Of a stretch of 64,000 nt of DNA, positions 7,141 through 39,240 are shown piece by piece. How positions within the stretch are numbered: the first letter of the stretch is position 1; every line of letters starts with the position of its first letter. Made by a program: the position numbers and the translations under genes. The stretch covers positions 1-64,000 of the forward strand of contig JAYWIR010000049.1 of NCBI GenBank assembly GCA_036172245.1, read 5' to 3'. The notes beneath the pieces were generated by a model. That model worked only from the letters and a program-made list of their open reading frames with translations. It made no database searches and had not been told where the DNA came from. The stretch is from Raillietiella orientalis. Its lineage: Eukaryota.

Positions 7141-7199
7141 CTTACCGAGTTGGTGACCTGGCTTCGAGGTTCATTGCATTGCGCGCACGACGACGGTTA

Positions 7200-13400: not shown

Positions 13401-13480
13401 AGAGAGTTTCTGCAGGCCTCCCAATTCTCCCGATGCCCGGACGTCCGGTACCTTGCGGAGTACAAGTCCAAGGCCAAGCG
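10478..13480 (+). mobile_element. Element J: intact 5' end, ORF1 (10559-12490, disrupted), ORF2 EN (ATG at 12496), truncated before the RT
   Basis: Starts CGGACGTG; ORF1 paralogous to 18977-20242; WNVNGL, LQEIH, NVYAP, PDHVFL. Confidence 0.9.
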
Positions 13481-14752: not shown

Positions 14753-17700
14753 TTGCCATTTGGCACCCGGATATGCCGGGGCATTTATTATTCTAATTTT
14801 TTACGAAAATTAGATAATAAAGTCTTTAAAAAGATGTTTTCCGTGGGAAAACACTGGGTTCTCCCACCTTGCTCGACGTGTCGTTTGCCGGTGCATAGAC
14901 CGCTTAGGTCCATTCCCGAGGCGCATGCGGAGGGAAAACTAGAACGACAACAAACAAAAAGAGCGATTACGGGGAGGGAAACAGTTATATGGGGAGAAGA
15001 GGGGCAGGAAAGGGATCACTGGGCGCCTGGGTCGGTCCTCCGCATCCTGTTGAGGATGCAGTCAAGTTCGGTTTTTATTGTGAAAGGTAGACGCCACCTT
15101 GTCGCCGTCTCTAAAGAGATCGTCGTCCAGTGGATGGCGTCCCTGCATCTTGGGCCTCTTCTTCTGGCGTGCCACCTTTGCACAATGCCGCGCACGCAGC
15201 AGAGGACTGCTAGAGACTCAGCGGGGCGCAGGCCGTCACGCAGAAAGAGGCGACGGTAAATTTCCTTAGGGTCGCCTACTGGAAGATGGAGGATTGGGGC
15301 GATTCAACTTCAGAGTCCATCCAGGGCGACACACTCGAGGATGAGATGCGGGAAGGTTTCTCTTTCTCCGCACTCAACACAGCGGGCATCCACATTCCCC
15401 AGTGTCCAGTGAGACAGGCGTGCTCTCCTTAACAGTCCCCAGGGCAGAAATAGAGCTCCTCCTAGTGTTTTTTAGGGAGGACAGAACGGGGACAAGGAAG
15501 CTGAAGGAATCCGACAGAAACTTCCGGGGCGTGTTGATAATCTCCTGCAGCGGCTGTCGAGCGTCGGTCCTCGTCGTAGGCAGTTGTATTCCGCCTCGCT
15601 CGTTCCGTTGATCTTAGCCCACGCGGAAGCTGACTCCTGAAGCCAGGCAGTGCAGTTCGCGGGGATGCAGGAGATCCAGGTATTCTCCCTGATCAGGGCG
15701 ACCATCTGGCGCAAATCGGGACCACAGTTGGAGAGGCTGCGCTGGTAGGCCACGAGGATCGAGGACAATCCTTTGCAGCCGGTCGCTCTTCTGGCGAGGA
15801 GCCGTGCCGGATCGCACAATGGCGTCATCCATAAGCTAGCCGCAAGGGCTAACTTTCGAATTCTTGTTTGAAGTTGGATGCGCTCCAACGTAAGGAGGCC
15901 CAAGCCACCATCCCTGCGTGGAGCGCACAAGTCTTTCAATCGGACTCGCGACCTTGCTGTGCCCCAAAGGGCAGTCCTCAAGAGGGCTTTGGTCCGTCTC
16001 TGTAAGATGAGAGGGGCGGGGCAAACAAAAAGTAAGGGGCAAACCAGTGGGACCGCGAACGCGTTCCACACCGCGGCCCGCTCCTGCAAGTAAAACTTGC
16101 CGTTCCGGAACGGGCCGATCGCCAACTCTACCTTTTGGAGACGGTCGGACCAGGCTTCTGCAACGCAGAAGTCCCCCAACGGAACGCCAAAGTACTTGAA
16201 GCACCTGCCCGTGGGGATCCCCAAGCGGATCCAGTCCAGCCGTCCGGCCCACGCCGTATTGTTTAAAAGTTGTGGTGATGTTGGAACGATGGAAGATTTC
16301 TCTCTGTTCACCTCGAGGCCCGTCCCGCGGCGCAGCAACTCAAAGAAATCTTCGAGCGCCGACGCCGGGGTGGACCCGGGGAGCAGCAGCAGAAGGTCGT
16401 CCGCGTACGCTGAAACGGCCGGCGTAACGGCACATTCGTGCCGCAGGTGCGCCAGAGTTTCCTTGTACGCTCCCAGTACCAACTCAAAGTCGGTACTGAA
16501 GAGCAAGGGGCTCACGCTGTCTCCTTGCCGGATCCCAGGTCGAACCGGCACGCCGTGCACTGTCTGCCCGCTGAAAGAAACGTTGATGAGCGCGTCGCGC
16601 CAGCTGGAGCGCAGATAGGCCACTAATGATTCCGCGAAGCCCAAGCGTTCCAGAAGCTCTAGAAGAAGATTCTGGTCGACGCAATCGAATGCTTTCCGCA
16701 AGTCGATTGCGACCGCAAGGGCTCCTTACCCCACCCGACCATTCGACCCCTTGAAGGCTCACGCACCGGAATTCCGGCTGCGCACCAAGCTCCTTACTTG
16801 TTGGAGCTCTAGCCAGGTGGAACCGTGGAACAGGTTGGTCTGCATGCTTCGTCCGGAAACAGCATATGTCTGTTCCGGGCTGATGAAGATGTTGGCAACC
16901 CGTCCCAGACGCTCTGCCCAAACCTTTGCTAGAAACTTGGCGTCCTTATTCACTATTGCGATGGGACCCCAGTTGTTCATGCTCCTCAGATCTCCTCCCT
17001 TAGGGAGCAGCCGCACCCTTGCCGAACGAAACGAGGCGGGAACGTCACCTGTTTCGCGTAGCAGCAAGGTGAGTTGCTGTACCAGGTGGGTAAGCTCAGC
17101 CGCGAAAGTTTTATAAAACTCCGCGGGCAGGCCGTCCTCTCCTGGAGCCTTTCGCCTCTTGAGCTTTCCGATGGCCGAGAGGATCTCGTCCATCGTGGAA
17201 GGCTCGACGATGGTCTTTCTCTGCTCCTCCCCGATCGCTGGAGCGCCTTTGGAAGCAGGAGTCGTAAGGCGTTCCTCTCCGGAGGTGCCCTGGCATACAG
17301 GGAGGAGTAGTAAGTCCGCAGCAGGCCGCGGATTTGGGCAGGTGCCGAGTGCTCCTGGCCCTGATCGTCCCGTAAGCTGGCCGATCCGGAATGCCAGGCT
17401 TGCCTCTCGGCTCCCGCTTTGTATTCCGCCAGCCTGCGGATGTCGGGGGTCCTGGCGTAACTACGGGCCTGCAGGTAGGCTTGTTCGTTGCGGACCCCGG
17501 TCCAAAAACCCGTAGGTAGGCGGTGCAGAGGGAACGGTTCGCAGAACTCCTCCATCGTCCGCTTGAAGCGGTCTCAATCCTGCAGTGTCCGCAGCCTGAA
17601 GCTCCGTATGAACGTGCGGAGATATTCCTCCGCGTCCGGGAGCTTCAGCCAGTCCCCTGGGAGACGTCACGCTGACGAGGGTGGGGCCCTGTCGCGCGGA

Positions 17701-18964
17701 TGGATCTCGAGAACTAGGGGGCGATGGTCGGACAGCTCGCACGGTAACTTGCCGCGCCTGCCCACGAGAGGGCACAGGTGCTCGTGAAGAAACACGTGGT
17801 CAATGCTGTATTACATTCCCGGTGCTCTGGCCAACAAATTACTGGTGTGCCTTGACATGGACAGCTCGTTGACCAGGTCACGCTGGGGATTCTGCCCATC
17901 TGGTTTCAGGCGAACGTTGAAATCTCCTGCAACCAGATGGGCATTCGGCACGCCTGCTTCGGTCAGCCAGTCTCGCCGTAGGGCAAGGAAAAACTGTTTC
18001 CTCGCCCTCCTGGTCATCAGGTCCTTGCCGCTCGGTGCGTACACGTTCGTGACGATCAGATCGATCGAGTGGGACCACCTCAGAGTCAGCTGGCCGACAC
18101 GACCGTGATCGTCGTACCGCACGCTTTGAGCCGCGGCCTCGAGGGCTGGCCGAAGCAAGTACGCGACACCGCAACTTTTCGTTCTTCCACACCTCTACCA
18201 TAGCCGCCCTCCGAAGATCCGTTCGATCTGTTGCGCTTGTTCTGCAGGGATCACGTCGATCTCCTGCAGCAGCGCAAGGTCGTAGGACTCCAGTAGGGCG
18301 GCCATGTCTCGTCTCCGGCCGGCGTCTGTCATGTTGTTCACGTTCCAAACGGCGATGCGCAGACGACGGCGGGAGGACATTCCCGGCATTACTGCTGGGA
18401 AGATTAAGGTGTGGAGGAGCCCGCTTCTTGCGAGGCGGGCGGGATGTCCATGGGGGTTTCGGCCTTCTCAGGCAACTGAGGCACCTGTTCGGCCTCCACT
18501 CCCTCCATCCTCTCCGTGTCGGCTCGTGGGAGTCTCTCGGGCGACGGGTCCCGAGAGTTTCCCACGCTCATGGCACCCTCGCTTGCGGAAACCATCTCTT
18601 CCCCGTCGACGGGGGAGACGAGCTACCTCGGCTTTGTGGACTTACGTCCAGCCTTCTTGCGTGGTGCCGTGAAAACCGAGGCTGCGCTTCCGGCCTCCAC
18701 CTTGGGGTCGGGAATGGGGGATTCCTGAGGGGAGGCCGGACGCCTTACGGCCTAATTGCCAGCCTTGGAGGGTTCCGGCTGCAACGAGGCAGCCAGCTCT
18801 AACGCGGGTCGCGTGAAGGCTACCTTATCGATGGTGGTACCGATGACGGACGCCGCAGCCGGCTCGCTCCCCTCGCTGTTGACAAAGTCAACAGAGCTGT
18901 TGTCGTCGGTAGCCGCGAGTTCTTTTTCGCAGCGCTAGGGAATACGCTCCACGACAACGGTGCA
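14753..18964 (-). mobile_element. Element A2, 3' segment: ORF1 C-terminus plus ORF2; family A sequence upstream of YADD and family E sequence downstream
   Basis: EN and RT motifs (RKAFD, QGDSVSP, YADD); 14753-16380 matches 22045-23890 apart from an approx. 225-bp deletion near 15455; 16385-18770 matches 41030-43418. Confidence 0.9.
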
Positions 18965-21900
18965 CGGACGTGTTCTGTGTTGGTCCTCGAACGCGATTCC
19001 TTTCCGTCTTCTTTGTGCGTGGTGTGCCCGAGTGCGTCCACTGGGATGTCCACGGAGCCCCTGCAGCAAAAGATGGATGTGAAGGCTGCTATTGGCAGTG
19101 AAGACTCTACTCCAGATGTCGGGTCCGCCTCTGATTCTTGTGTCTCGCCACCGGCGAGAAGCTTCGCCGCCGTCGTCAAGGCAGCGGCAGCCAACGGAGC
19201 ACCGCCCGACGAAGCGGAGCTGCAGGCATATGCAGCCCATGGCTACAAGCCTGCGCTCTGCTATCCGGTGAGTGCTGCGATCTCCGACGGGGTTGGAGAA
19301 AATTTGTGGGACGAGCTTTTGCGCGTCGAGTTCCGACAGGACGACCTCCTGGCCGTCATGCCGGTTAACGCGCTCGGACACTGGGAGGTGCACTGCAAAG
19401 AGGCATCCCTAGTCCAGCGCCTTCTTCGAACCACGCTAAATATCCGCGGGAAGGAGGTCGTCCCGTCGGCCATGGACCAGTCTTTCGTGGTCCGATTATC
19501 CGCCGTCCAGGTTGACACGCCCGATCGCGTGCTCGTCGATGCACTTAGTGCATTCGCCACGGTGCACGCGCTGTGGAGAGCAGACAATCCAATCAAAAGG
19601 ATTGCATCTCTCCACAGCGGACTTGCCATGGCGCGTGCCACCATGGCGGATAGGAGGCAAATGCCTCCGCACTTGCAGGTGGGCGATGCGATCGTCCACC
19701 TTAAATTTGCCGGTCAGCGACCGGCTTACGGCATTTGCGGCGCAGAGGGCCACCGTCCGTGGACGTGCCCTCCTCGCAACTGCCGCTATTGTAAACAGCT
19801 CGGCCACTCCATTAAAGAGTGCGCCGAGCTGAAGAGAAAGAGGCAGGCGAAAAGCCGCCAACAATCGACCCCGTCCGCGCCGAAAAGATCCCCGTTGTGC
19901 TACTGGAGAAATCGGGCGCGAAGGGTGGGGCATCTTCAAGTGGAGGTCCCGCGAAAAAGTACGCGGTTGCTTCAGGGAAGCCACAGTCCCAGAAAACCGC
20001 GCCGACGGGAAAGATGCCTCGTCGTCCTGGGGGCAAATCGCCTCCTTCGAAGCAGCCTAAGAGTGCGAAGACGCACTCAATCAAGGCTGCTGAACCTTCC
20101 TCTTCGGCTTCCGCGTCCAGCTGAGCGCACGGGAAACCGTGCGCGGGTATCCTCGGAACTGCCACTGAACGGCAGTCTCCTCCTACGGCGGTGGAGATCA
20201 CCTCTTCCACGCCGAAGGGACGAGCAGCGAAGGCTGCATTAGCGCCTCGCGGGACGACGGCGATGACCGCCGTTTCGCCCGCATCGGCTAAGAAGCAGGT
20301 ACAGCGCGTAACGGGGACGGAGCCGTCTCCCGTATCGAGCGCGCACCCCTAGCCGGAATCACCGGCCAAACAATTGAGGGAGGCGTCGGCCTCCCAGGAG
20401 GGCGTCCCCGACGCGGGCTGGACTCGAGTCTCCAGGACTCCAACAAAAGGGAAGAAGAAGGTTGACCCTTCAATATTCCCCATCCTTAAGGTGGGTGGGA
20501 GTTAAAAGAGAAGCACGCCGAAGAAGGTGCGTTCACAGGTACGCACTACGGCTGCGTGCTGTGTCTCCGTCGCTTCGCGCGAGAGGGCGGCTGCAAAAGC
20601 CAAAGCTCCGGAAGCTGCGTTCGCGACTGCGACGACCCTCGCGCGGGCAGGGCATGTCCCCACCTGCTTAAACAAAAAGAGACTGGCAAAACGTCAGTCT
20701 CGCGCCAGGCACTCCGACTCCGAGGTGGAGTCCGAGTGCAAACAAATGGAGCGCGCATCCCGGGGTAAGCCGGTAGCGCGCCGTGCAAAGGTGCGAAGGA
20801 ACGAGCCTGTTGCCGGAGGCGGTTCCGGCTCGTGCACGGAGACCGAGACGATAATCCTCGGCTCCCAGGACTCAGCTGGGCGCGATGTGGCGGCGAATGG
20901 GAGCGATTCCGCTTCCCAATCCGCTCTCCCACCAGCTGACTTCTCGCCGGACGAAGCGAGGAGCACGCCGTCATGTCCGCATCAGTGATGCGTGTTCTCG
21001 CGTCCGCTCGTCGCTTCAGCGTGGCCTGTTGGAACGTCAACGGGCTACGCGACGCTGACAAAAGGCGGACGGTAGCCAACGCTTTGCGCGCGTTCGATCT
21101 GGTTCTGCCGCAGGAGATACATAGCATCTCCGAACGGCAGGCATCGGATCTGGAAAAGCGCGCGGGCGGGACGCTACACTGGCGGCAAGGCTCCGCACAC
21201 ACGTGCGGAGTCGCGTTCCTCGTCCGAGGCAGGGTGGCGGAGGCAAGACGGAACGTTTGTTTCGACGAGGAACGTCGTGTGGGCCAACTTGTCCTCAAGT
21301 GGTCGGAATCGATCGACCTTGTCGTTACGAACATCTACTCGCCGAGTGGCGGCCGGCATTACGCCCAACGAATCGCATTCCTGGGTGGCCTGCGCAGCCG
21401 CTGGCTCGTTGACTCCGGCCCTAACGTGGCGCACCTACTTGCAAGAGACTTCAACGTCCACCTGCTTACGGAGGAGAGATGCCGCTTGAGGGAGAAGCAA
21501 CTGGTGAGCGACGTATGCGCGTCCGTGCGCGTGCAAAACTAGCTTGCTGGTGAGCCCGGGATGGAGAGATTGCCGGACCATGCCTTCCTCGATGAACACC
21601 TGCTCTCACGAGTAGGTCGGAGAGGGCGCCTGCTGTCCGAGATGTCGGATCATCCGAGACTGAAGTTCGAGCTCCTCCCGCCTGGCAAAGGGACTCCGAT
21701 GAATCTCTGGAGGTTGCGGCCGACTGGATTAGCAATCCGGAGGCGGCGGAGCATCTTCGCCAGCACATCCGGGGCTTCTCCATCCGTGAACTCGAGGACT
21801 GGGATGATCTGAAAAGATCGATCCGCGATTTCTGCTGCCGTTTCCGCTTCCACCTGCTTCCCCGCAGCTTTGGTGAGGGTGTCGCGAACAGCAGATCCTT

Positions 21901-22044
21901 TCTGCAGGCGCGTTCCTTCTCCCGATGCCCGGAAGTCTGGCGTTTGGCGGAGTACAAGGTTAGGGCCGAGCGCCAGGTTTGGCTGTCTGGAGCGGCTTGT
22001 CTGCTCGATGACGCTGGCCAGGAATGCTCGACTGCATCCGAAGT
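18965..22044 (+). mobile_element. Element H, 5' segment: 5' end, ORF1, EN; continues at 35321
   Basis: Starts CGGACGTG after TSD acgacaacggtgca (18951-18964); ORF2 breaks at ECSTASEV and resumes RVVKRYFSSLY at 35321. Confidence 0.9.
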
Positions 22045-25039
22045 TTGCCACCCGGATATGCCGGGGCATTTATTATTCTAATTTTCTACAAAAATTAGAT
22101 AATAAAGTCTTTCAAAAGTTAATTGTGGGAAACACTTGGTTTTCCCGGCTTGGTTGACGTGTCTGTTGCCGGTGCATAGACCGGTTAGGTCCATTCCCGA
22201 GGCGCATGGGAAGGGAAAACTAAAACAAAAACAAACAAAAAGAGAGATAACGGGGGGGGAAACAGTTGTATGGGGAGAGGCGGGGCAGGGAAGGGATTAC
22301 TGAGCGCCTGGGTCGGTCCTCCGCATCCTGTTGAGGATGCAGTCAAGTTCACTTTTTATCGTGAAAGGTAGAGGCCACCTTGTCGCCGTCTCTAAAGAGA
22401 TCGTCGTCCAGTGGATGGCGTCCCTGCATCTTGGGCCTCTTCTTCTGGCGTGCCACCTTTGCACAATGCCGCGCACGCAGCAAAGGACTGCTAGAGACGC
22501 AGCGGGGCGCAGGCCGTCACGCAGAAAGAGGCGACGGTAAATTTCCATAGGGTCGCCTACTGGAAGGTGGAGGATTGGGGCGATTCGACTCCAGAGTCCA
22601 TCCAGGGCGACACACTCGAGGGTGAGATGCGGGAAGGTTTCTCTTTCTCCGCACTCGACACAGCAGGCATCCACATTTCCCAGTGTCCAGTGAGACAGGC
22701 GTGCTCTGCTTAACAGTCCCCAGTGCAGAAATAGCAACGCCGTCTCCTGCCGCTTCAACGGAAGTGTGGCGCAATCCCAACACGCTGGGGGCCACTTCAC
22801 CTCCTCCGCAGGTATTGCGAGCAGCTCTCCCCAGCGAGCAAGTCCGTGAGGCGGGACGCTCGGAGTGGCAGCGTTAGTGAGCTCCCGAGTCGTCCACGCC
22901 TTTAAAGGTTTTTTCCTGCCTCGGATGAGGCAGGACACTTCCCACGATGCCAGCTCGTTGCTGCTCCTACTGTTTTTCAGGGAGGACAGAACGGGGGCAA
23001 GGGGGCTGGAAGAAGCCCACAGAAACTTCCGGGGCGTGTTGATAATATCCTGCAGCGGCTGTCGAGCGTACGGTCCTCGTCGTAGGCAGTTGTATTCCGC
23101 CTCGCTCGTGCCGTTGATCTTAGCCCACCCGGAAGCTGACTCCTGAAGTCAGGCAGTGCAGTTCGCGGGGATGCAGGAGATCCAGGTATTCTCCCTCATC
23201 AGGGCGACCATCTGGCGCAAATCGGGGCCACAGTTGGAGAGGCTGCGCTGGTAGGCCACGAGGTTCGAGGACAATCCTTCGCAGCCGGTCGCTCTTCTGG
23301 CGACGAGCCGTGCCGGATCGCACAATGGCGTCATCCATAAGCTAGCCGCAAGGGCTAACTTTCGAATTGTTGTTTAAAGTTGGATGCGCTCCAACGTAAG
23401 GAGACCCAAGCCACCATCCCTGCGTGGAGCGCACAAGTCTTTCAATCGGACTCGCGACCTCGCTGTGCCCCAAAGGGCAGTCCTCAAGAGGGCTTTGGTC
23501 CGTCTCTGTATGATGGGAATGGCGGGGCAAACAAAAAGTAAGGGGCGAAGGAGGGGGGCCGCGAACGCGTTCCACACCGCGGCCCGCTCCTGCAAGTAAA
23601 ACTTGCTGTTCCGGAACGGGCCGATCGCCAACTCCACCTTTTGGAGACGGTCGGACCAGGCTTCTGCAACGCAGAAGTCCCCCAACGGAACGCCAAGGTA
23701 CTTGAAGCACCTGCCCGTGGGGATCCCCAAGCGGATCCAGTCCGGCCGTCCGGCCCACGCCGCATGGTTGAATAGTTGTGGTGATGTTGTAACGATGGAA
23801 GAACAGAGAGAACTCTGTTCACCTCGAGGCCCGTCCCGCGGCGCAGCAACTCAAAGAAATCTTCGAGCGCCGACGCCGGGGTGGACCCGGGGAGCAGGAG
23901 CAGAAGGTCGTCGGCGTAGGCCGACACGGCAGACGTGCCGGGACACGAGCTTGGCAGGGTTGCCAGCGTCTCCCTGTATGCCCTCAGCACCAGCTCGAAG
24001 TAGATGCTGAAGAGCAAGGGGCTCAGACTGTCACCCTGCCTTATGCCACGCCGAACCGGCACGCCGTACACGTGCCGGCCGCTAAAAGAGATGTTTATTA
24101 GAGCGAAGCGCCAGCAGGAGCTCAGGTAAGCCCGGAAGACGGCCGGGAATCCCAAGTGTTCCTGGAGCTCCAGAAGCAGTTCCTGGTCGACGCAATCGAA
24201 CGCTTTACGCAGATCGACTGCGACCGCAAGGGCACCGGGCGCGGCTCTTCCATGAAGGGCGTCCCCTCCCTGGTCAGAGGAGAATCCAGGATTCTCTTGA
24301 CCTCCCTGTTCTTCGCTTTGTTGCAACTGCCACCATGTACTGGCGAGGAACAGGTTGGCCTCCATGCTTCGTCCGGGAACAGCGTATGTCTGCTCCAGAC
24401 TCACCACGGATTCCGCCACCCGTCCCAGTCGCTCAGCCCAAAGCTTGGCAAGCAACTTCGCATCCGCATTCACTACTGTGATGGGACGCCAGTAGCCTAC
24501 ATTGCGATTGTCTCCTCCTTTCGGCAGGAGACCTACTACAGCTGACCGGAACGATTTGGGGACGTCCCCTTGTTCTCGGATCAGCATGCATAGCCGATGC
24601 ACCAGGGGGGCCAGCTCCGCCACGAAGCCTTGGTAGAACTCCGCGGGCAGACCGTCTTCCCCTGGTGCTTTTCTCTTTCGGAGCCTTCCGATGGCGGAGA
24701 CGATCTCCGCCATCGAGAAAGGCTCGCGAGTTCATGTGCCTGCTCCTCCTGCAGCGCGGGGGCGCCTTGCGGCAGCAAGCGCTGCTCCACGGCGCGCTCG
24801 GTTGTTCTACGCGCGTACAAAGAGGAGTAATAGTCCCGCAGGATGCGGTTTATTCTCGCCGGAGCTGAGCATTCTTGGCCTTGGGCGTCCAGCAAGCTGG
24901 GCGACCCGGATTGCCAGGTCTGTCGCTCAGCCCCAGCTTTATACTCCGCCAGGCGTCGAACGTCGGGAGTCCTAGAGTAAAGACGGGCGTGGTGGTATGC
25001 CCGGTCGTTCCTCAGCCCTCCGCCGAATCCCTTGGCGAG
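22045..25039 (-). mobile_element. Element E2, 3' segment: RT, C-terminal CCHC and 3' UTR
   Basis: KAPGEDGL, DLRKAFD, QGDSLSP, YADD, CVECGERETFPHLTLEC; terminus aataaatgccccggcatatccgggtggcaa. Confidence 0.9.
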
Positions 25040-25126
25040 TGGACGTGTGTTTCCTTCGCTCCCGAGTGAGTCGACAGGAAGCGGTTTTTTGTTGTGTTGT
25101 TCAGTGTGGAACATCGTTGGTGTCCG

Positions 25127-26880
25127 ATGGCAGCGATGCCTGAGGACACCACGATGGAGGTAGGTGTGGGGGAGGCTTGCCCACCCCCACAGCCTACAGA
25201 ATCAGGGGCGTCCGCCCCGGAATCGCCCTCGCCGCTCAAGGCGAGGAGCTGGAGCGCCATGGTGGCCGCGCCGAGCGCGGAAACCATGGCCGAGATGGCG
25301 GCCTACCGGGCAGCTGGGTACAAGCCCAGCTTGGTTTACCAGGTAGGCAATCTCTTTGACGGGCGAACTGCACGCGCTTTTTCGAAAGCGCTGCAAAACG
25401 CCAACGTGTTGGAAAAGGACCTTGACGGTCTATCCGTGCTAAGCGGGGGTCAGCGCGTTGAGGTTGTCTGCAAGGACATCACCTTGGCGCAAAGCTTGAT
25501 AACCACCCCGCTGAACGTGGACGGACGCAAGATCCTACCAGTCACGATGGACCGCTCCGTAGTGGTCCATCTGACAGGGATCACCAGCCGCATAACGCGG
25601 TCTGCGGTTGGTGATCAGTTAAGAAAGCACGGGGATGTTCACGCGCTTTGGCCAAAGGCCACAATCTTCGATGGCTACGATAGCCTTTTCGGAGGGCAGG
25701 CCGCCGCGCGCGTGACGGTGAACGAGAGTGGGCTTCCCCACAAACTAGAGGAAAATGGCGAAGTCGTAGACCTCTGGTACGTGGGGAAACCCCGCTTTTG
25801 TGGCTACTGCAATGCAGTAGGACACTTGCGCAAGCGGTGCCCGAACATTGTGTGCCACTTATGCGGGGAGAAGGCCACGTACTCTGCGTATGCCCTAAAC
25901 GCCCCACTCCAGTGCCGCCTGCTGCAAAGAAAGCACAGTCAAAACGCGGTAAACTGGTCGAAAGACCAAAAAGAGATACTGGCCGGCAGCAGCCGCTAGC
26001 CCCTGTTCCTCCCACACAGGCGTCGGAAGAAAAACCCTCCGAAGACGCGGGAGTCCAAGACGGCTGGCAGCTGGTCAAGGCCAGGAAGGAGAAAAAGGTG
26101 CACCCCGCGGAACCCGCGAAAGCGGTAAAAAAGACTGCCGGCAAGGCGAAAAAACCTGGGCCGCGTTCTAAGACCATGCGGGAATGTACGGTAGCACTGG
26201 AGCGCATAGCCGTTCCCGAGATTGCCACCCGGGGCGACGAGCCTTCCCTCGCCGTTTCCACCGCGCCCGAGGTTCGCGACGACGAACCCTCTGTTTACAC
26301 AGAGGGTGAGCCGCGCGACGCGCCGGTCGACACTGCGGACGCCGCGTTCGCAAAGGCGGCGGAGGAGCTCGCGGCCACGCTGGCGGAGCGTGAGAACCCC
26401 TCACGCAAGGCCGTGCGAAGGCCGGCTCCCGCGAAAAAGGCCCCCACAGGTGAGTCGGACCTAGGGGCCGGAAGTGCATCCTCCTCCTCGGAGGCACCCC
26501 CCAGGAAGTCGGGACGCAAGTCCCAGAAACCCAGGACGCGCCTCCCCTCCACCAGCGAGGAGGAGAAGCAGGAAGGTAGCGGTAGCGTGGGAATCCCGGA
26601 GGGGGAACTCCCACGCTCGGAAGCCGTCGAGCCGGCCACCCCCATGGAGGAGGGTGAGCAGGGGGGCGAAGCCCTCCCTGCAGTCGCCGAGCCTGAACAG
26701 CCCGCCCCCATGGAGGAGGGCCAACAGGTAGGCGCGACCCCACTTAAGGGTGACCCCCTCGACGCGCCGTTACCCATGGAGGAGGGGGACCAGGTGCACG
26801 CAGCGCCTGACCCTTCTCCTCCACCTAGCGTCCCGCCCCAACAGGTGGCGGACGCCGCATCGCCATCTTCCCAGGAATAA
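25127..26880 (+). pseudogene. G1 ORF1, gag-like nucleic-acid-binding protein (one frameshift near 25870)
   Basis: CGYCNAVGHLRKRC, CHLCGE..GHVLCVC; GWQLV; ECTVALERI; three PMEEG repeats. Confidence 0.88.
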
Positions 26881-29800: not shown

Positions 29801-30474
29801 GCACCCGGACGCCAAGGTGGCAAGTCTCCTGCTGCATCGAGGGACGGGAGAAGTTGATCAGCGGCTGGACAACAGGAGAACTGGCCGACGCCTCGACCCC
29901 GAGCGTCCAGCCGCGAGGATTATTAAGATGGGGCGAGCTGCTCGCCATCCCCAGGGATGAGCTGAAGTGGCCCCCGGTGATGAAGGAATCCAGGATCCTG
30001 CCCCTGAAGTGGCAAGAGTCGGCGTTGCTTTTGTTGCACTGGGGTCTACCCTGCAACGCGCGCCGCTTCCACTGGACGAGGGGAGCTGTGGATCCTGCGT
30101 GTGCCAGGTGCGGGGAGCGGGAGTCGCTTCCCCCCCGTATTGTGGATTGTGCTGCCCTCCGACCCCTTTGGGAACGGTTCGGGACGACCCTCGGGCTCCC
30201 TACGGGCAGCACCCCCAGAGACGTTCTTCGGCCCCTCTTCGTGAAGGACGCACTGCAGCCAGCCGCAGCCATCGCAGCCTTGTGCTGCGTCCGAGGCATC
30301 TTGGGGGCATGGAGCGACGACAACAACGAAGGAGTGGGTCCACAGGCGAGGGATTTCATCCCGTATGCCAAACGCTTCTTGCGAAGAGCTGCCGGATGGC
30401 CCCAACTGGGGAATATGCAGGCTGACCTCGAGGGCTTCGTTCGACGGATGGGCCCTCCCCACAGCGACCAGTGA
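26880..30474 (+). pseudogene. G1 ORF2: APE endonuclease, reverse transcriptase and CCHC (frameshifts near 28710 and 29120)
   Basis: ORFs 27015-28745, 28448-29320 and 29005-30474 join into EN (GDFN, IDH, SDH), RT (DLHKAFD, QGDSLSP, YADD, KYLG) and CARCGERES. Confidence 0.93.
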
Positions 30475-30550
30475 TCCCTTCCCTGCCCTCCAACTTCTTT
30501 TTGTTTGTTTCTTTTGATTTAACTTTTTGTCTCATCCCCATCCCCCTTCG

Positions 30551-30679
30551 CTGTCGGGGAGTGCCACGCCGGGCTGCGTCCCGGTGTCCCGACAGGTCCT
30601 GTGTCTACGGCCGTGGTGGGGCCTTGTACCACGCATGTAAAGTTTATCAATAAACGCCCCGGGCGTACCCGGGTGGCAA
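30551..30679 (+). other. Structured 3' UTR of G1: CTGCGT-loop hairpin, second hairpin, AATAAA and terminal cccggg-cgta-cccggg stem-loop
   Basis: Inverted repeats are visible, and homologues with compensatory changes occur at other element ends. Confidence 0.8.
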
Positions 30680-32062
30680 CGCCGAAACCTGGAGGGAGAC
30701 GGTTTAGGGGAAACTGGTCGCAGAAGTCGCGGGCTGAGCTCTTCAAGTCGTCGCAGTCCGCGAGCGACTGCAGATGGAAGCCTTGCAGGAACGAGCGAAG
30801 ATGTTGCGCTGCTCCTGCGAAGCGCAACCAGTCCCCTGGCAAACGCCACGCTGTGGAGGGTGGAGCTCTACCGCACGGGTGTATTTCTAGCACGAGCCGG
30901 CGATGGTCGGAAAGTTCGGATGGCACTGCCCCTCGATTTCCAACCCGCGAACACAGGTGGTTGTCGAGGAACATGTGGTCGATCCTCGTCTCCGTCCCGG
31001 CGTCACCGGCCAACAAGTTGCGCGCGTGCATGGCAGCGCACATCTCGTTGACCAGCTGTGCGTGAATGTCGGGCGCACCTGCCAGCAGGCGGACGTTAAA
31101 GTCCCCGGCAATGAGGTGCGCCTTTCGCATGTCTGCTTCGGCCAGCCAATCTCGCCGCAGGCCTTCGAAGAACGCAGTGCGTTCCCCGCGCCTGTGGCTC
31201 GTGCCGGGCGCGTACACGTTGGTCACGACGAGGTCGATCGCGTCGGACCACTTGGCAACAACCTGCCCGATTTGACCTTCCCCGTCGAAGTGCACGTCGC
31301 GCAGCGCATTAACGACGGCTGGTTTCAGCATGAAAGCCACACCACTGGTGTGGTCTCTCCCGTTTTGGTATACGAGATGCCCGCCTGCGATCGGTTCGAT
31401 TTCCTGGGCCTCCCCTGCGTGGAGAACGTGCGTCTCCTGCAGAAGCGCCAGGTCGAAGTCCCGCAGGCTGGCGGCCACTTCTCTCCTCTTGCCGTCGTCG
31501 CGCAACCCGTTGACGTTACAACAGATTACGCGCAGTCGCCGGCAGGAGGAGAGTCCACGCGTTGGTGTGTTTATTGTGCTTGCTTACCGTCCTCCACCTG
31601 CTGTTCAGCAGGCGGGAGTTGTGTATCCATTGCGACGGGCTGTTGCTCGCAAGGAGGCGGTCCGTCGGTGGTTGTGGTGGTGGTTGGAGGATCCTGCTTG
31701 GCCAGGGACGTCTCCGGCGAGGAGTCGCGAGACCTCGCGGACATCGCCTCCCCGTCGTCGTGGTCCGACCGCATTTCCTCCTCCGCCGGTGGAGGTGCGG
31801 AGCGCCGCGGGTTGCCTACCGTGCGGCCCGCTTTGCGCTTCGGGAGAGCGATAGCCGGAGCCTTGCCGGCTTCGGCTTCGGACTCGGAAGTCTCCGGTCC
31901 TTTCGCCTCAGCCGGACGCCTCAAGGCCTTCTTCAGGGCCTTGGGAGGCTGCTGGAGCATGGCTGCCAACTCTTCCGCCGCCTTGTTGAAGTCCCGGTCG
32001 TCGCTGCTCACGCTGGGCTCGCGACTTTGTCGCGGCGTCGGCGTTCGCGCGGCGGCGGCTTG
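30680..32062 (-). mobile_element. Element E2, middle segment: ORF1 C-terminus plus EN
   Basis: LQETH, NVYAP, AGDFN, RIDH, SDH; joins 34097 through TSD ggcggcggcttg. Confidence 0.88.
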
Positions 32063-34096
32063 TTCACACCCGGATGTGCCGGGGCATTTATTTCTTAGAA
32101 ATAAAATAACAGGAAAAATGTCGCGTGGCGAACCCGAAGGTTCACCACTCCGAAACAGCTTGCTGGTTACCGGCTCCGTGCCGGAGAGGTCTTTCCGATG
32201 CGCGGGGATGGGAAATAAAGAAAAACAAAAAGAAACAAAAAGTTCAAATGTGGGGGGGAACAAATGTTGTAGGGGTGGGAGGGCGGGGAAGGGATCACGG
32301 TGCGCGTGGAGAGGTCCTCTAGATCCTATTCAGTATCCGCACAAGCTGAGTCCTTTCAGCGCCCAAGTGGCGCCACTTGCAGACACTTCGCGCGAAAACG
32401 CGAGTCCAGTGTAAGGCGTTGCCGGTTGGCTGACGCCTTCTTCTGATGGCGTTCCAAGCCGCCACTATTCCTCTGATGCAGCAGAGGACTGCTACACTAG
32501 CGGGCGGGGACAAGGCGTCACTACAGAAGAGGCGCCTGAAAACGTCCTTTGGGCCGCATCCGCGCAAGTCCAGGATCGCCGCGAGACGATCCCAGAAAGG
32601 GCGGATGGCACTGCACTCGATGAGAAGGTGGGGGAAGGTCTCTTTTTCCCCGCAACGGTCACAATAAGGATCCACAGCCCCCCGGGTTGTGTGATGAAGG
32701 CGTGCTTTGAATGGAAGTCCCCAGAAAACCACAAGCAACGCCACATCCTGCCATTTCAGGGGGAGGGATGCGCTGTTCCAGGACGCTGGGGGCCACTTCA
32801 TCTCCTCCGGAGATAGTCCGAGTAGCTCGCCCCAGCGTCGAATTCCGTTGGGCGGGACACTCGGCGTCGCAGCGTCAGCTAGCTGCCGAGATGTCCACGC
32901 CTTTATCGATTGTGTCCTGCCGCCTATAGTGCAGGACACGGTTTATTTTCCCTGCTCGCTACTGTCCCTGGCATTCACAAGGAAGGGCAGCACTGGGGCG
33001 AGGAAGGTTATCAAGGCCCACAGAAGCTTGTCGTGGGACTGCACGATCTCCTGCAGCGTCCAGCGGGCGTGCCTTTTCATACAAGTGTTCCTTGTGCCCG
33101 CCGGAACGTGGATCTTTACCCAGGTGGAGACTGACTCGTGCAACCAGGCGGAGTAGTTCCTTGGGAGGCAGGAGATCCAGGCGTTCTCCCGAACCGCAAC
33201 AAAGATGCGTCGCAGCATAGAGCCACAGTATGATCTCCTGCAGACGCGCGCAGACAGAAACGACAAAAGTCCGCCGATTCCGCAGGCTCGTTGGGCCAGC
33301 AGGCGTGCTGGAACGCACCAAGGCGTGTCCGACAATTCTGCCGCAAGGGCGAGAGTCCTGAATCGAAGTTGTATTTCGATGCGCTCCAGCGTAAGTAAGC
33401 CAAGTCCACCGTCCTTACGTGGAGCGCACAAGTCTTTGAGCCTCACACGGGACCTCCCTTTGCCCCAAAGGACTGTGCTCAGGAGGCCCGCTGCTCGTTT
33501 CCGAATAAAATAAGGGGCGGGGCAAACAAAAAGTAGGGGGTGAAGGAGGGGAGCCGCAAACGCGTTCCACACCGCGGCCCGTTCCTGCAAGTAGAACCTG
33601 CCTTCTTGGAACGGAACGATCGCCAACGCTGCCTTTTGGAGACAGTCGGACCAGGCTTCTGCTGCGCAGAAGTCCCCCAACGGTACGCCGAGGTACTTGA
33701 AGCACCTGCCCGTGGGGATCCCCAAGCGGATCCAGTCCGACCGTCCAGCCCACGCCGAACCGACGAAGACCATGGACGACTTCGCCCTGTTCACCTCCAG
33801 GCCCGTCCCGCGGCGCAGCAACTCGACGAAGTCCTCGAGTGCACTCGCCGGGGTGGACCCGGGAAGCAGCAGCAGAAGATCGTCTGCATAGGCCGACACG
33901 GCAGGCGTGCCGGCACACGAGCTCGGCAGGGTTGCCAGAGTTACCCTGTATGCCGTCAGCACCAACTCGAAGTAGATGCTGAAGAGCAAGGGGCTCAGGC
34001 TGTCACCCTGCCGGATGCCGCGGCGTACGGGCACGCCGTACACGTGCCGGCCGCTGAAACCGATATTGATTGACGCGTTGCGCCAGCAGGAGCGCA
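32063..34096 (-). mobile_element. Element F: 5'-truncated insertion (RT 3' half, CCHC, 3' UTR) with a 12-bp TSD
   Basis: ggcggcggcttg at 32051-32062 and 34097-34108; QGDSLSP, YADD; CDRCGEKETFPHLLIEC. Confidence 0.93.
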
Positions 34097-35320
34097 GGCG
34101 GCGGCTTGAACAGCTGGCGTGACGTCACGTCGCATCGATCCGTCAGCGGAGCGAGTATCGATCGCCGGCACGCGTTTGATGGCCACGCTGCACGCTCTGA
34201 TTGTTGGGCGTGGCGCGACCTTCCCCTTGCCCTTCACCACTTTCGCCGGTGCGGGCGCGGTTTTTTTAACGATTTTTACTTTACGGGTGACCAGCTGCCA
34301 GCCTTCCTCGTCGGCAGTCTTTTCCGGGAGCTCCTGTACCGAGTCCCTTTCCTGCTGCGTGACTTTTGTCGGAGCCGACGGCTGATCCCCTTTTGTGGGG
34401 TGTATCACTATTTTTGCCTTCCCTTCCTTCTTTTGAGGAAGTTCCGGCGTTGGAGCGACGTTCATCGGGCACACCACTTTGGTGTGGCCCTTCGCGCCGC
34501 ACGTTGGGCAAACCGCGTCCGGGCACCGCTTTTTCAAATGCCCGAACGACTTACAGTTTCCACAAAATTTAGGTTTCCCCACAAACCAAATGTCGACGAA
34601 CTCGTCGCCAATTTGGAGCTTGTGGGGAAGCTGTACGCTTTCTCGAAGCGTCACGCGCGCGCCTACTCGCCCACTAAATGCACCGTTCACTCCGAAGGTG
34701 TTGGGCTTTCTCCACATCGCGAAAACGCTTGCGTATTTTTCCAGTTCAGCGCGGATGGCGTTCTCATCCATCCGCACTGTTGTCCCGGTTAGGTGGACCA
34801 CAATGGAGTGGTCCACCGTGTGTGGGAGTAAATTCCTGCCCTCAAATTGTACGGGCGTGCAGAGCATCTTGTGGGTAAGAGCTGCATCCTTGCAGATGAG
34901 CTCCGCCAACTGCCCTCCGCTCCGTATAGAGAGGCAAAGAATTTCATGGTCGGCAATGCTTATCTTTTTGATGGCATTGCCGAACTTTCTCGCCCTTAAC
35001 GGGGAATATAAATTGCCTACCTTGTACAGGAGGTCCGGATTGTAGCCCTCCTGGATGTACGATTGGATTTCGGCGGCGAAATCGGGCGTTTCCGCCGCTG
35101 CCACCGCGCTCCAGGCCCTCGCCGTAGTGGCGGGTTCAGAAGAAGTGGTGGGGCGTGATCCCACCTCCTTTGGCTTGGGAGACGCGGTCTTCCCGCCTCC
35201 CTCACCTGAAAATGCGGCGTTCACAGGCATTTCTGCCTGTCAACGGCCGCGAAACTCACACGAAACACCAGAAAAGAAAAACTCCTTATCCACGGAGCGC
35301 ACAACAAGTGCGTCCGCCGT
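34097..35320 (-). mobile_element. Element E2, 5' segment: 5' end plus open ORF1 N-terminus (ATG at 35230)
   Basis: CGNCKSFGHLKKRC and CPTCGAKGHTKVVC knuckles; ACGGCGGACGCA start. Confidence 0.92.
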
Positions 35321-38029
35321 ACACGCGTAGTCAAGCGCTACTTCTCCTCGTTGTACGCGGAGGAGCCCACGGAACGCAGTCTCTCCGAGCTGCTTCTTCC
35401 GACGGGTAACCCTGCTATCGACGAAGAGGAACGCGCTAGATTGGAATGGCCCTTCACGGCGGAAGAAGTATCTTCTGTCATAGCAGGCCTGAAGAGGCGT
35501 AAGGCGCGTGGGGAGGTTGGCCTGCCCGCGGAGTTCTTTCAGTGCTTCGCGGCGGAGCTCGTCTTCCTGGTGCTAAGCCTTTCCTCGCTGATGCGTGATA
35601 CGGGTGATGTCCCTGTTTCTTTCCGCTCAGCAAAGGTACGGCTCCTGCCGAAAGGCGGGGATTTGCGGCACCTCAGCAACTGGCGTCCGATCACATTGGT
35701 GAATTCGGACGTCAAGTTCTTCTCCAGGCTATGGGTCGCACGCCTGGGTAGATTCGCAGAGTGCTTGGCAAGTCCGGAGCAGACGTATGCTGTTCAGGGG
35801 CGGTCCATGGACGCAAATCTCTTCTTCGGGCGAACATGCTTCGAGCTGCAGCAGCGCGTAGCGCAGCAGAACCAGGCAGCCGAAATCGCCGCTGCCAAAG
35901 GTAAGCGGCGGTGTTGAAGGCACGATGGAACGCCGTGAGCCTTAGCGGTCGCCGTCGATCTCTGCAAAGCGTTCGACAGCGTAAACCAGGACCTCCTTCT
36001 GGATCTTCTGGGACGCCTAGGCCTCCCGACGCACCTCATCGCCTACTTGCGCTCATGCTGGCACCACGCGTTATGCTGTATATCTTTCACCTGGCGCCAC
36101 GTGTACGGCATTCCCATACGCAGGGGTATCAGGCAGGGAGACAGCTTAAGCCCCCTGCTCTTCAGCATCTTCTTTGAGTTGGTGCTGAGGGCGCCCAGGC
36201 TAACGCTGGCCAACCTGCCGAGCTCCTGCCCGGGAACACCGGCCGTGGCCGCCTTTGCTGACGACCTTCTCCTGCTACTGCCCATGCCCACCCCGGCGTC
36301 CAGGCTCGAGGACTTCTTCGAGCTCATTCTTCGGGGAGCATGCCTGAGCGTTAACAGGACGAAAGCAACCGTTGTACCGGTTGGCTCTACGTTGGAGGGG
36401 CAGTCCAACTGGATCCGCCTGGGGATCCCCATGGGCAGGTGCTTGAAGTACCTCGGCGTTCCCTTGAGCGCCTTCTGTTCAGCAGAAGCGTGGTCGCACT
36501 GCCTTCACAAGCACGAGACTGCTGTGGGCCCGTTCCAAGGCGGCAGGTTTCTCCTGTCGGAACGGGCCTTCGTGTGGAACATTTTCGTTGCCCCCCTCCT
36601 CCGTCCCCTCTTTTTTGTTTGTCCCCCTCCCTACTCGGCTAAGCGCCTAGTGCAACGCCTGTTGCGTAACGCCCTGTGGGGATCGACGAGGTCCAGGATA
36701 CGCCTGAAGAAGTTGGCGGCTCCTCGGCGGGATGCAGCTTCGGGCATCCTGACGCTAGAGCGGATCGGACTGCTAGTGCAGTTCCGCATGCTGGCACTTT
36801 GTGCGCAGCTCTGGACTACTCCCTGGTGTGCTCCAGCGCGGCTGCTGCTGCGGCGCTGCACGGGTGGCGACGGACTACGTTCGTTGCATCTGCGCACGGT
36901 GCGCGCCCAGAGAGGATACGGCTTTCCTTTGCAGCAGCTCGCCACGCTTCTAGGAAAGCATAAGTGGATCTCCTGCCAACCGACGAACTTCAACGCCTGG
37001 AGGCAGGAAGCCTTATCGTCCTGGGCAGCGCAACAGGATGTGTCCCGTTTGGAACTCCGTTGCGCGAACCTTTTCCCATACTGTCCAGTGAGGGAGGTGC
37101 TTGAAGACCAGGACCAGTGGACACGCCTAGCCGCTACGCCCCTCGCCGAAGCACTGTCTGCCCTGATGGTGCGAGATGACAGTGACCTGCCGGCGAGGTG
37201 GGAAATCACTTGCGAAATCGCAGGCGAAACCCGACTGCTGGGCGTTTGGCGGACTTGCGAAGTGGCAGACGCTGCCACACCTCGCATTCTTGCAAAGGGG
37301 CTTCTCCGGTGGAGTGAGCTCCTCGGGGTGCCCATTGATGAACTTGTGGTGCCTTCTGCGTGTTTATACGCAACTCTCTTCCCCCTTCGGTGGAAGCAGG
37401 ACGCTTCTCTGCTGGTGCATTGGGGTTTGCACTGCAACCAGCGGGCGCACCTGGTTTACGGAGGAGTTGCGTCCCCGAACTGTGCTAAATGCAAAGCGTT
37501 GGAAACGCTACCGCATTTCTTGTTTGAGTGCGGTGCCCTCCAGGAGCCGCGGCAGCGGCTGTCTTCAGCGCTCATGCATCCTGGACACACCTCACTAGAT
37601 TGGATGCTCCGCTTCTACACTCGTGGTGGACTTTCTCTTGGAGCGGTCGTTGCAATCATCTGCTGCGTCCGCGCCATTGTCAGGGCGCGCCACGTATTGC
37701 AGATGCGAGCAGTCCCAACATCGGTCCCCGACACCGCAGCCTGCAGCCTGCAAATGGCTGCCGGGTGGCCACATCTTGGGCAGAAGTGAGGACGGAGATA
37801 GGCGGCTTTCACCGCCAGTACTGAGAATAGGAACGGTTAGACTGTAAACCCCTGTCCCCGCCCTCGCACTTGATCTATTTATTAATGGTGGCCCCCTCTC
37901 CCGTTCCGAACTGTCAGTGTGCCCGGACTGCGTGCCGGGAATTCTACTCCCCATTTTCTGTTCCCCTTGCCTGGGAACACAGTTCCCTGTTGATATTATA
38001 ATAAACGTCCCGGTGCAACCGAATAATAA
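35321..38029 (+). mobile_element. Element H, 3' segment: RT (FADD in this copy), CCHC and 3' UTR ending aataataa
   Basis: ORF 36047-37789; followed by TSD acgacaacgctgca at 38030-38043. Confidence 0.92.
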
Positions 38030-39218
38030 ACGACAACGCTGCATTCCTTAATTTGCTCGCTTGCCTGCTGTTTTTTCTGGTGGTACGAGAGCTTTTTATC
38101 CATCCTCATCTCCTTCTTTGATTTTTTGGCCGTAGGCACCTGCCACCCAGGCTCCTGGCTTGTTCCTTCGACTTGTTCGGCGTTGCTCGCCGAGGTCTCG
38201 GGCGCGGCCTGGGCCTTGGGCGCGGGTGGCACAGCCTTCAAAGCAGCTTTCGCCGCCAGCCTTTTCTGCAGAAGCCGGGCACGTTTTTTAAGGCTTCTCT
38301 TGGAAAACACCCGCACTGCTGCTTTAGGGCACACCTCCCTCTTGTGGCCCATGATTCCGCATACTTGGCACTGCACGTTGGTACACCTCTTTTTGAGGTG
38401 GCCCGACGTATTGCAGAAGCCACAGTATTTCGGCTTCCCCACATACCAGAGGTCGACGGTTTCGCCTTCGACCTTCAGTTTGTGGGGAAGAGTGCATCCC
38501 TATCAAACCGTCAAGCGCGCACACGTGAGGCCGTGTTGCAGCCCCGTGTAGTCCTCGAAAGGACTAACTTTCGTCCACTGCGCGTGGACCGTTCCGTATT
38601 CCTTCAACGCGGCGCGAACCTGTTCCTTGCGCATCCGCGCGGTAACACCTAGCTGGTGGACCACCATGCTGCGGTCCGCCGTAATAGGGAGGAGCCTGCG
38701 CGTCTCCAGCACCACGGGGGTTTTAAGCAGTCGTTGTGCCAGCTCTGCTTGTTTGCAGATGACCTCAACGTACTGACCCCCGCTGCGGATGGTCATAGCG
38801 CTCAGCTCCTCCTCTTTAACATCGAGAGCACGCATGCCCTTCGAGAAGGCGCGCGCGCTCTCTAAAGAATATAAATTGCCTACCTTGTAGAACAATGAGG
38901 GGTAATACCCCTCCTCTACATAGGCCGACAATTCCGCCGCGGCTGCAGGCGATGGCGCCGACACAACGGCGCTCCACGCCCGCGCTGCAGCGGGGACCGA
39001 TTTTGTGGAGGCGCAAGCCCCCACCTCCATCGCCTTCGAGGTGGACGTTGCCGCCGCCCCCCGGCTTTCCATCGCCAGTAAGGGAGGCGTTGCTGCTGCC
39101 CCCGGGCCATTCCTGGTGGTCGCGTCAGGTATCGTTGCCTTAGCGACCACCGAACCACACGACGCTTGCACTGGGGGAGACTTCCTGGCACGAGGAGCAC
39201 CGAGAAAACACGTCCACC
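38030..39218 (-). mobile_element. Element A2, 5' segment: 5' end plus ORF1 N-terminus; continues at 18964
   Basis: GTGGACGTG start; knuckles; ORF1 reads ..IKECSVV here and continues VERIP at 18964. Confidence 0.9.
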
Positions 39219-39240
39219 CTGGAGCACGCAAGGCGTTCGA

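Follow-up and report, generated by a model that had tools for sequence, protein, structure and literature searches.

The 64,000 bases analyzed here (positions 1 to 64,000 of contig JAYWIR010000049.1, assembly GCA_036172245.1, Raillietiella orientalis; this whole stretch is called the window below) contain LINE (long interspersed nuclear element) sequence only. The elements are non-LTR (long terminal repeat) retrotransposons of the apurinic/apyrimidinic endonuclease (APE) type and belong to the L1 group (L1/Tx1). They lie within one another to a depth of four levels, and the insertion sites have no target sequence in common. The window is probably part of a domain that is built from a single APE-type LINE lineage and that arose by accumulation at the level of the region.

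Content of the window and nesting of the elements

The window contains no N, its GC content ranges from 53 to 64% per 2 kb and is about 59-60% overall, and the ratio of observed to expected CpG is 1.0, so that CpG decay as seen in vertebrates is absent. The 150 longest of the 220 stop-to-stop open reading frames (ORFs) of at least 120 amino acids were compared with Pfam. RVT_1 was found in 12 ORFs, Exo_endo_phos in eight, and zf-CCHC in one, while two further matches to zf-RVT (PF13966) reached 24.6 and 26.2 bits and stayed below the cut-off of 27.5. No integrase, RNase H, transposase or host domain was detected in these ORFs, and the only name not belonging to LINEs was DUF3558, with one match below threshold. 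The Rfam scan of the window gave 0 matches. The ORF2 frame at 56684-60388 (minus strand, 1235 codons, one stop) and three ORF1 frames were used as tblastn queries, and their matches tiled the window with LINE pieces on both strands. An earlier note, which had been made from the letters of this DNA, had listed no LTR element, DNA transposon or host gene, and this agrees with the finding of LINE domains only.

The elements have a common architecture. ORF1 carries CCHC knuckles, and ORF2, of about 1235 amino acids, encodes an APE endonuclease, a reverse transcriptase (RT) and a Cys/His C-terminus. Exo_endo_phos and RVT_1 occur together in one ORF of the copy G1, the zf-CCHC match lies in ORF1 of the copy N (23.4 bits, cut-off 20.8), and a CxxC...H...C pattern is visible in the C-terminal translations of ORF2. 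Full-length copies measure about 5.6-5.9 kb. All nine recognizable 5′ ends begin with (T/C)GGACG(T/C), the consensus being (T/C)GGACG(T/C)G, and in E1 and E2 this start is preceded by a common ACGG; the search pattern matched 12 times in the window, compared with 3.0 expected matches. The motif AATAAAYGNCCCGG is present at ten 3′ ends, with an expectation by chance of 0.05. In most of the ten, the layout is AATAAAYGCCCCGG, a variable loop of 4-5 nt, CCGGGTG, and 3-5 A-rich bases; the part after the conserved motif is degenerate in H, A3, and A4. A poly(A) tail was found at none of the ten ends. The inverted repeat CCCGG/CCGGG can pair in 88% of cells, 0 compensatory pairs were observed, and RNAalifold predicted a different hairpin of 4 bp with one covarying pair; the 3′ stem is thus a predicted, unproven possibility of pairing. 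Two of the ten 3′ ends (G1 and A3, e.g., 30620-30650 and 39280-39300) have TGTAA about 15-25 nt upstream of AATAAA, and three others (E2, G2, A4) have TGTAG at that place. In chlorophyte algae, polyadenylation is usually signaled by TGTAA.

The middle of the window is occupied by a nest of four levels, in which H is inserted into A2, E2 into H, and both G1 and F into E2. It consists of the following pieces, with the copies of the target-site duplications (TSDs) indicated:

14753-18964, minus strand: A2, 3′ part (ORF2 and end of ORF1), a mosaic; TSD copy at 18951-18964
18965-22047, plus strand: H, 5′ part (start CGGACGTG, ORF1 with CCHC knuckles, ORF2 residues 51-400)
22044-25039, minus strand: E2, 3′ part (ORF2 residues 336-1227; 3′ motif at 22061-22074, end of the tail at 22044-22048)
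25040-30679, plus strand: G1, full length (5640 bp), innermost, with ORF1, and ORF2 in three frames
30680-32062, minus strand: E2, middle part (ORF2 residues 36-345 and end of ORF1); TSD copy at 32051-32062
32063-34096, minus strand: F, 5′-truncated (ORF2 residues 635-1227), innermost, with a perfect 12-bp TSD
34097-35320, minus strand: E2, 5′ part (ORF1; start ACGGCGGACGCA ending at 35320); TSD copy at 34097-34108
35321-38029, plus strand: H, 3′ part (ORF2 residues ~406-1213; degenerate 3′ motif at 38000-38013)
38030-39216, minus strand: A2, 5′ part (ORF1 residues ~2-354; 5′ start TGGACGTG at 39216); TSD copy at 38030-38043

A2 spans 14753-39216 on the minus strand and is broken in ORF1 by H, which occupies 18965-38029 on the plus strand. 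The two 14-mers of the H duplication match at 13 of 14 positions and adjoin the 5′ start of H at 18965 and its 3′ end at 38029. With ORF1 of E2 as the reference, the right part of ORF1 of A2 (39096 to 38029) can be followed to about residue 354, and with ORF1 of G1 as the reference, the left part (18970 to 18494) takes up the frame again at the corresponding position. ORF1 of A2 is continuous across H. ORF2 of H breaks off at residue ~400 (22051) and picks up at 35321, and comparison with the uninterrupted relative B revealed that the two halves join up with a deviation of only a few bases; a TSD was not found around E2. The element C was considered as the lost 5′ half for the 3′ part of H and was rejected, as C ends about 60 bp before the break, while the 5′ part of H meets the break to the base in the alignment with B. 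For G1, both flanks align to residues 336-345 of ORF2 of E2, and its TSD is weak, with 7 exact bases or about 14 of 19 positions in an alignment by eye. The F element is flanked by the perfect 12-bp duplication GGCGGCGGCTTG (12/12). In a control with 2624 random position pairs, in which exact words were searched within ±20 bases, words of at least 9 bases occurred in 0.65% of the pairs and words of at least 12 bases in none. The four levels, the split of H by E2 with ORF2 resuming at 35321, and the split of E2 by G1 and F had all been described in the earlier note, and they are borne out by the duplications and by the frames that continue across the breaks.

Misjoined repeats could mimic nesting, and an assembly artefact of this kind would be conceivable in a highly repetitive region. 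The public run X1 contains 27% of the sampled words and yielded 157 short contigs, 43 with at least 99% identity and 114 with 95-99% identity. No contig bridging a junction was shown among the 157, and some bins were not covered; these contigs are evidence neither for nor against the junctions. Against an artefact, the TSDs lie exactly at the ends of the inserts, which had been defined independently by their 5′ starts and 3′ tails, and the reading frames of the hosts resume at the right residue. Chimeric joins would not yield both, and an assembly artefact is thus barely credible as an explanation of the nests.

The right-hand part of the window contains three further insertions into related elements, namely L in G2, and N and A4 in G3:

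39229-43421, minus strand: A3, 5′-truncated within ORF1, end of the A-rich tail at 39241; situated head-to-tail between G2 and A2
43422-46767, minus strand: G2, 3′ part (ORF2 residues 201-1234); TSD copy at 46759-46767
46768-52657, minus strand: L, full length (~5.9 kb), inserted in G2
52658-54968, minus strand: G2, 5′ part (5′ start, ORF1, ORF2 residues 16-203); TSD copy at 52658-52666
54969-56477, plus strand: G3, left part (ORF2 residues 31-532), 94% identical to G1; TSD copy at 56463-56477
56478-62356, minus strand: N, full length (~5.9 kb), inserted in G3; one stop in the ORF2 frame
62357-62627, plus strand: G3, continuation (ORF2 residues 516-611), ending inside the codons of the HKAFD RT motif, at A4
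62628-64000, minus strand: A4, 3′ part, inserted in G3 and continuing past the window edge

The L duplication is a perfect 9-mer (9/9; 46759-46767 and 52658-52666), and five extra bases are present at the 5′ junction of L. The 15-bp duplication around N (56463-56477 and 62357-62371) matches at 13 of 15 positions. Both nests had been reported before under other labels. The former "M in L" with its 9-bp TSD is L in G2, and the former "O in N" is N in G3, which stands as a nest, but with an imperfect duplication. Treating 43423-46768 (formerly K) and 52658-54968 as separate tandem elements was rejected, because they are the halves of G2, split by L. Tandem Repeats Finder reported a 24/48-bp tandem repeat at 61978-62164 (3.5-7.8 copies, 66-73% matches), which precedes ORF1 of N and is close to the 5′ end of this element.

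Taken together, seven insertions in the window have a readable host, and in all seven (7/7) the host is a related element, as had been claimed. Five are inserted antisense and two sense to the host, and they lie at ORF1 residues ~354-381 or ORF2 residues ~200-611. The lengths of the TSDs vary from 0 to 19 bp across the insertions. The junction sequences are unrelated, and no target sequence is common to the seven insertions. The TSDs are therefore without consensus, as the earlier note had already remarked, and homing to a fixed sequence is unsupported. The same note had proposed a candidate self-targeting system on the basis of the nesting. This part of the proposal is not supported by the window, because any insertion in a domain composed of LINEs only hits a LINE, and nesting alone is therefore no evidence of targeting. 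It is the exclusiveness of the domain that needs an explanation.

Relationship and decay of the copies

An RT tree with 31 rows was calculated without mammalian L1 or Zepp references. Seven copies from the window and one metagenome protein (P0001, 67% identical) formed a clade with a support of 100/100 and a stem of 1.69 changes per site, which joined the Tx1 side of the tree with weak support (47/93). The nearest named relatives in HMMER searches were Tx1-type proteins of turtles and Xenopus (P0021, 38% identity, E 4e-60). Among solved structures, human L1 ORF2p was the best relative of the RT part (E 1.8e-25), and the matches in the ESM Atlas were generic RT clusters only. No close relatives were found in scans of metagenome contigs; the 11 loci detected there were all distant, with 22-36% identity. 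Zepp or ZeppL sequences were not among the matches returned by the searches for relatives. As judged by sequence comparison, all copies belong to a single lineage of LINEs, a divergent one within the L1/Tx1 group. The elements resemble the Tx1 group (Tx1 of Xenopus and its relatives in fish and reptiles) in the layout of ORF2 and have their nearest named protein relatives there. In contrast to that group, which is described as target-specific (PMC3747384), no single target sequence is used in the window, and the identity is only 38%. The earlier assignment to the Tx1 clade therefore stands with regard to the nearest named relatives, but the position in the tree supports it weakly, and insertion into one fixed target, the defining trait of Tx1, is not observed in the window.

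None of the copies in the window has an intact ORF2, and the longest open stretch comprises 802 of about 1235 amino acids. N, with the single stop in its ORF2 frame, is the least decayed copy of the window, while ORF2 of G1 is split over three frames. The nearest copies are 79-97% identical to one another, and the subfamilies that coexist in the window (A, E, G/N, H/B/L/C, and P) are 20-35% apart. F and A3 are 5′-truncated copies.

Copied junctions, mosaics, and head-to-tail joins

The left part of the window differs from the nests in that several of its elements end abruptly or against one another:

1-1924, plus strand: A1 (end of ORF1 and ORF2 residues 32-546), cut by the window edge, with an abrupt end at 1924
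1926-4530, minus strand: second copy of the H/A2 junction tract, ~94% identical to 36213-38820
2717-7150, minus strand: B, H-group (ORF2 residues 44-1213 and ORF1 tail), ~70% identical to H outside the common tract
7200-10233, plus strand: P, a divergent LINE of lower GC content (ORF1-like region and APE), 3′-truncated
10478-13499, plus strand: C, 5′ part of an H-group element (5′ start, ORF1, ORF2 residues 50-380), 3′-truncated against E1
13494-14752, minus strand: E1, 5′ part of an E-type element, 91.5% identical to the E2 5′ part; its 5′ start adjoins the 3′ tail of A2

The second copy of the junction tract is inverted and has a size of 2.6 kb. It comprises the last 1.8 kb of H, the 14-bp TSD, and 790 bp of the A2 ORF1 flank. 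The H/A2 nest junction has thus been copied as DNA, be it by gene conversion, by segmental duplication or via a read-through transcript. It had been considered that the homology between B and H ends at the E2 junction, a coincidence that would have linked the copying to the nest, but the identity profile places the switch at ~36213, inside ORF2, and the idea was rejected. A2 is itself a mosaic. Its 3′ 1.5 kb (14753-~16300) are 94-97% identical to E2, which is nested two levels inside A2, and have a deletion of 226 bp at ~15453. The adjoining part (~16400-18790) is ~92% identical to A1 and A3, so that the switch lies at ~16300-16400. Left of 14753, several elements are truncated at the 3′ side where they meet another one, namely at 1924 (A1), 10233 (P), and ~13495 (C, which meets E1). 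Joins of two 3′-truncated elements cannot be generated by insertion alone. Insertion alone therefore does not account for the whole window: the nest is real, but the mosaic, the truncated joins, and the junction copied as DNA require additional events.

The end of E1 (13494-13505) is the 12-mer GGCGGCGG[G/C]TTG, which is also the TSD of F in E2 (34097-34108), and E1 and the 3′-truncated C are joined at this 12-mer with a few bases in common. This coincidence may indicate a fragile or preferred site in the E-type ORF1, or a rearrangement. In ORF1 of E1, Tandem Repeats Finder also detected a perfect 35-bp tandem duplication in the zinc-knuckle region (13915-13984).

These features raise the question whether most of the cluster arose when a few founding insertions were multiplied by segmental duplication and recombination, and not through a large number of independent insertions. 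One nest junction is present twice together with its TSD, A2 switches its relationship at ~16300-16400, E1 ends at the 12-mer of the F site, and the joins at ~13495, 10233, and 1924 are truncated at the 3′ side. However, the six insertions that were checked differ in TSD and host, a divergence of 20-35% between subfamilies is beyond the reach of duplication, and the duplicated tract is merely 2.6 kb long. As the main mode of growth, duplication is thus improbable.

P is the most deviant element of the window. Its GC content is ~53% in 8001-10000, and its ORF1 contains an alanine/proline-rich repeat, with a 27-bp tandem repeat at 7497-7584. The APE of P is only ~30% identical to the other APEs of the window, but these are still its best matches among the proteins compared (E 3e-17, versus 4.6e-11 for the best of ~300 other proteins). 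Further pieces of P were not found in the window.

Four elements on the minus strand form a head-to-tail chain in the order G2, A3, A2, and E1. The gaps between each 3′ end and the next 5′ end are 0, 24, and 6 bases (at 43422, 39217-39240, and 14753-14758, respectively). According to a rough estimate, the chain exceeds what random placement would give, the chance of landing so near to one of the ~10 3′ ends being ~0.4% per event. Template jumping and end-directed insertion are possible causes of the chain. A3 and A4 have an identical stretch of 12 nt beyond their A-rich tails (39229-39240 and 62616-62627), which reads TCGAACGCCTTG in the element sense. In the case of A4, these 12 nt are the codons of the HKAFD RT motif of its host G3. 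For A3, a short 3′ transduction that started from an A4-like parent is the simplest reading; homing through annealing to the conserved RT motif would also be possible, with two cases only. At 32051, an X1 contig contains the 3′ end of F and the 12-mer, followed by 255 letters, of which a consensus of 30 letters was shown. This extension looks like another element's 5′ start (TGGACGTGC...) and would be one more join of a 3′ end to a 5′ start, in a related genome.

The chain and the common flank could be explained by homology-assisted self-targeting, in which the 3′ end of the RNA, or a read-through flank, anneals to nicked related copies. New copies would be joined at the ends or coding motifs of older ones, and jumps of the RNA template would produce head-to-tail chains. 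The position of A4 exactly in the HKAFD codons, the identical 12 nt at A3, the two junctions of at most 24 nt between a 3′ end and a full-length 5′ start (A3 to A2 and A2 to E1), the 3′ tail of G2 abutting A3, the low chance of such close landing, and the X1 contig with an F-like 3′ end followed by another 5′ start would all fit. On the other hand, the window contains only two A-type 3′ ends, transduction accounts for A3 without homing, and the other six insertions lack homology between tail and target. The chain is equally explicable by later rearrangement, which was demonstrated in the window. Little credence is therefore given to self-targeting of this type, both for its annealing step and for its template jumps.

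The LINE domain and its possible setting

The exclusiveness of the domain has to be explained at a different level. We infer that it is a property of the region, caused by chromatin-directed integration, preferential retention or both, and not by recognition of a DNA sequence. The subfamilies A, E, G/N, H/B/L/C, and P would have been inserted into older copies over a long period of time. Insertion would have occurred by target-primed reverse transcription, at different positions and in either orientation, and would have left TSDs of 0-19 bp. Later, local recombination or gene conversion at the DNA level would have copied and mixed pieces. All copies are broken now.

The most likely setting, which is put forward by analogy and with less confidence than the domain itself, would be a centromere-type transposon cluster like those formed by Zepp and ZeppL in green algae. 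The earlier note had suggested a centromere-like sink, and this is the explanation already given for comparable green-algal clusters in the reports concerned (PMC8226300, PMC3446292, PMC11005252, bioRxiv 2025.03.28.645958). Zepp of Coccomyxa subellipsoidea C-169 (formerly Chlorella) is described as having a GC content of 61% and as forming nested clusters, one per chromosome, that are probably centromeric (PMC3446292). ZeppL in Chlamydomonas is reported to occur only at centromeres (PMC8226300), where it is bound by CENH3 (bioRxiv 2025.03.28.645958). For two green algae, centromeres dominated by one LINE/L1 were described, with average sizes of ~23 kb and ~200 kb (PMC11005252). LINE-only, nested clusters that mark centromeres are thus already known (Zepp, ZeppL, and Celine, a centromeric LINE of poplar).

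The likeness to the published descriptions of Zepp and ZeppL-1_cRei includes near-pure clusters of one LINE lineage, nested and 5′-truncated copies, and an APE and RT of the L1 type. The GC content of Zepp (61%; PMC3446292) is close to the ~60% of the window, and the reported clusters of tens of kb to ~200 kb (PMC3446292, PMC11005252) can be set beside the 64 kb analyzed here. The 3′ ends are different: Zepp, L1-1_CR, and ZeppL-1_cRei are listed with (A)n (PMC3747384, Table 3), whereas the elements of the window end with a conserved inverted repeat and 3-5 A-rich bases. The elements also differ in size, as full-length ZeppL exceeds 8 kb (8334 bp for an insertion on chromosome 2; bioRxiv 2025.03.28.645958), in contrast to ~5.6-5.9 kb in the window. 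Furthermore, several subfamilies that are 20-35% apart coexist here.

Celine is similar in that, according to its description, a LINE is concentrated in one chromatin domain and often nested, without a sufficient sequence target, and with TSDs of variable length (15 bp on average; PMC11288735). However, the hosts of Celine are mostly Gypsy/CRM elements, whereas all hosts in the window are of the same lineage, and Celine is young (99.1% pairwise identity) and resides in an AT-rich plant genome, whereas the copies here are old (PMC11288735). A further likeness exists to plant L1 elements with "stringent" 3′ recognition, which are described as having a conserved 3′ end with a short pairable stem and no long poly(A) (PMC3747384, PMC3472496). 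It is confined to the 3′ end, and the stem in the window has 0 compensatory pairs.

Of the two processes that could underlie a regional property, the first is active chromatin-directed integration. The proteins of the lineage would be tethered to a component of the domain, e.g., CENH3 chromatin or heterochromatin, so that the lineage itself builds the domain. This would explain why neither genes nor other classes of transposable elements were seen in the 64 kb, even though the arrival of the several subfamilies was spread over a long period. It would also be in line with the reported confinement of ZeppL to centromeres (PMC8226300), with one recent non-centromeric ZeppL insertion that is described as lying at the center of a CENH3-enriched region (bioRxiv 2025.03.28.645958), and with the 84% of Celine copies that are reported to lie in CENH3 domains (PMC11288735). 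However, targeting and retention cannot be separated in the window, which contains no active copy, and on its own active direction is a possible but doubtful explanation.

The second process is a passive sink, in which insertions occur anywhere but survive only in a gene-free region of low recombination and become nested by chance. Such a sink was proposed for Chlorella centromeres (PMC11005252), and it would be in accordance with the old and broken state of every copy, with the lack of a target consensus, and with the varied positions and orientations (five antisense, two sense). Other mobile elements or their debris would be expected in a sink, but none were seen in the 64 kb, an objection that is weak if the genome is poor in other elements. 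Taken alone, a passive sink is rather unlikely.

A more far-reaching version would be that the lineage builds and maintains an exclusive domain, perhaps a centromere, outside the few green algae for which such domains are reported, and does so partly with a homing device of its own. The 3′ end of subfamily A would carry 12 nt complementary to the HKAFD motif of its relatives and insert there, and template jumps or end-directed priming would string copies head to tail. We regard this version as a whole, from the exclusive domain with its own device to the pairing with the HKAFD motif and the stringing of copies, as quite unlikely.

Several points speak against the regional explanation and its centromeric setting. 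The term centromere is used by analogy only, and Zepp and ZeppL-1_cRei end in (A)n according to the published list (PMC3747384), which the elements of the window do not. All copies are decayed and show no sign of current activity or targeting. The three successive head-to-tail junctions and the 12-nt flank of A3 and A4 are not predicted by a purely regional model and hint at end-directed or homology-assisted joining. Lastly, assembly errors are possible in so repetitive a region. Nevertheless, accumulation of one lineage at the level of the region remains the probable explanation.

By itself, a single window of dead copies raises no new question. It shows in small compass how elements change after insertion, with a junction that was copied together with its flank and with mosaic elements. 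If the domain is a centromere, the few centromeres known to consist of one retrotransposon family would be joined by one that is formed by an independent LINE lineage. This lineage shares only 38% identity with its nearest named relative and differs in its 3′ end, and the case would, if this is true, bear on the question whether such elements find centromeres or make them.

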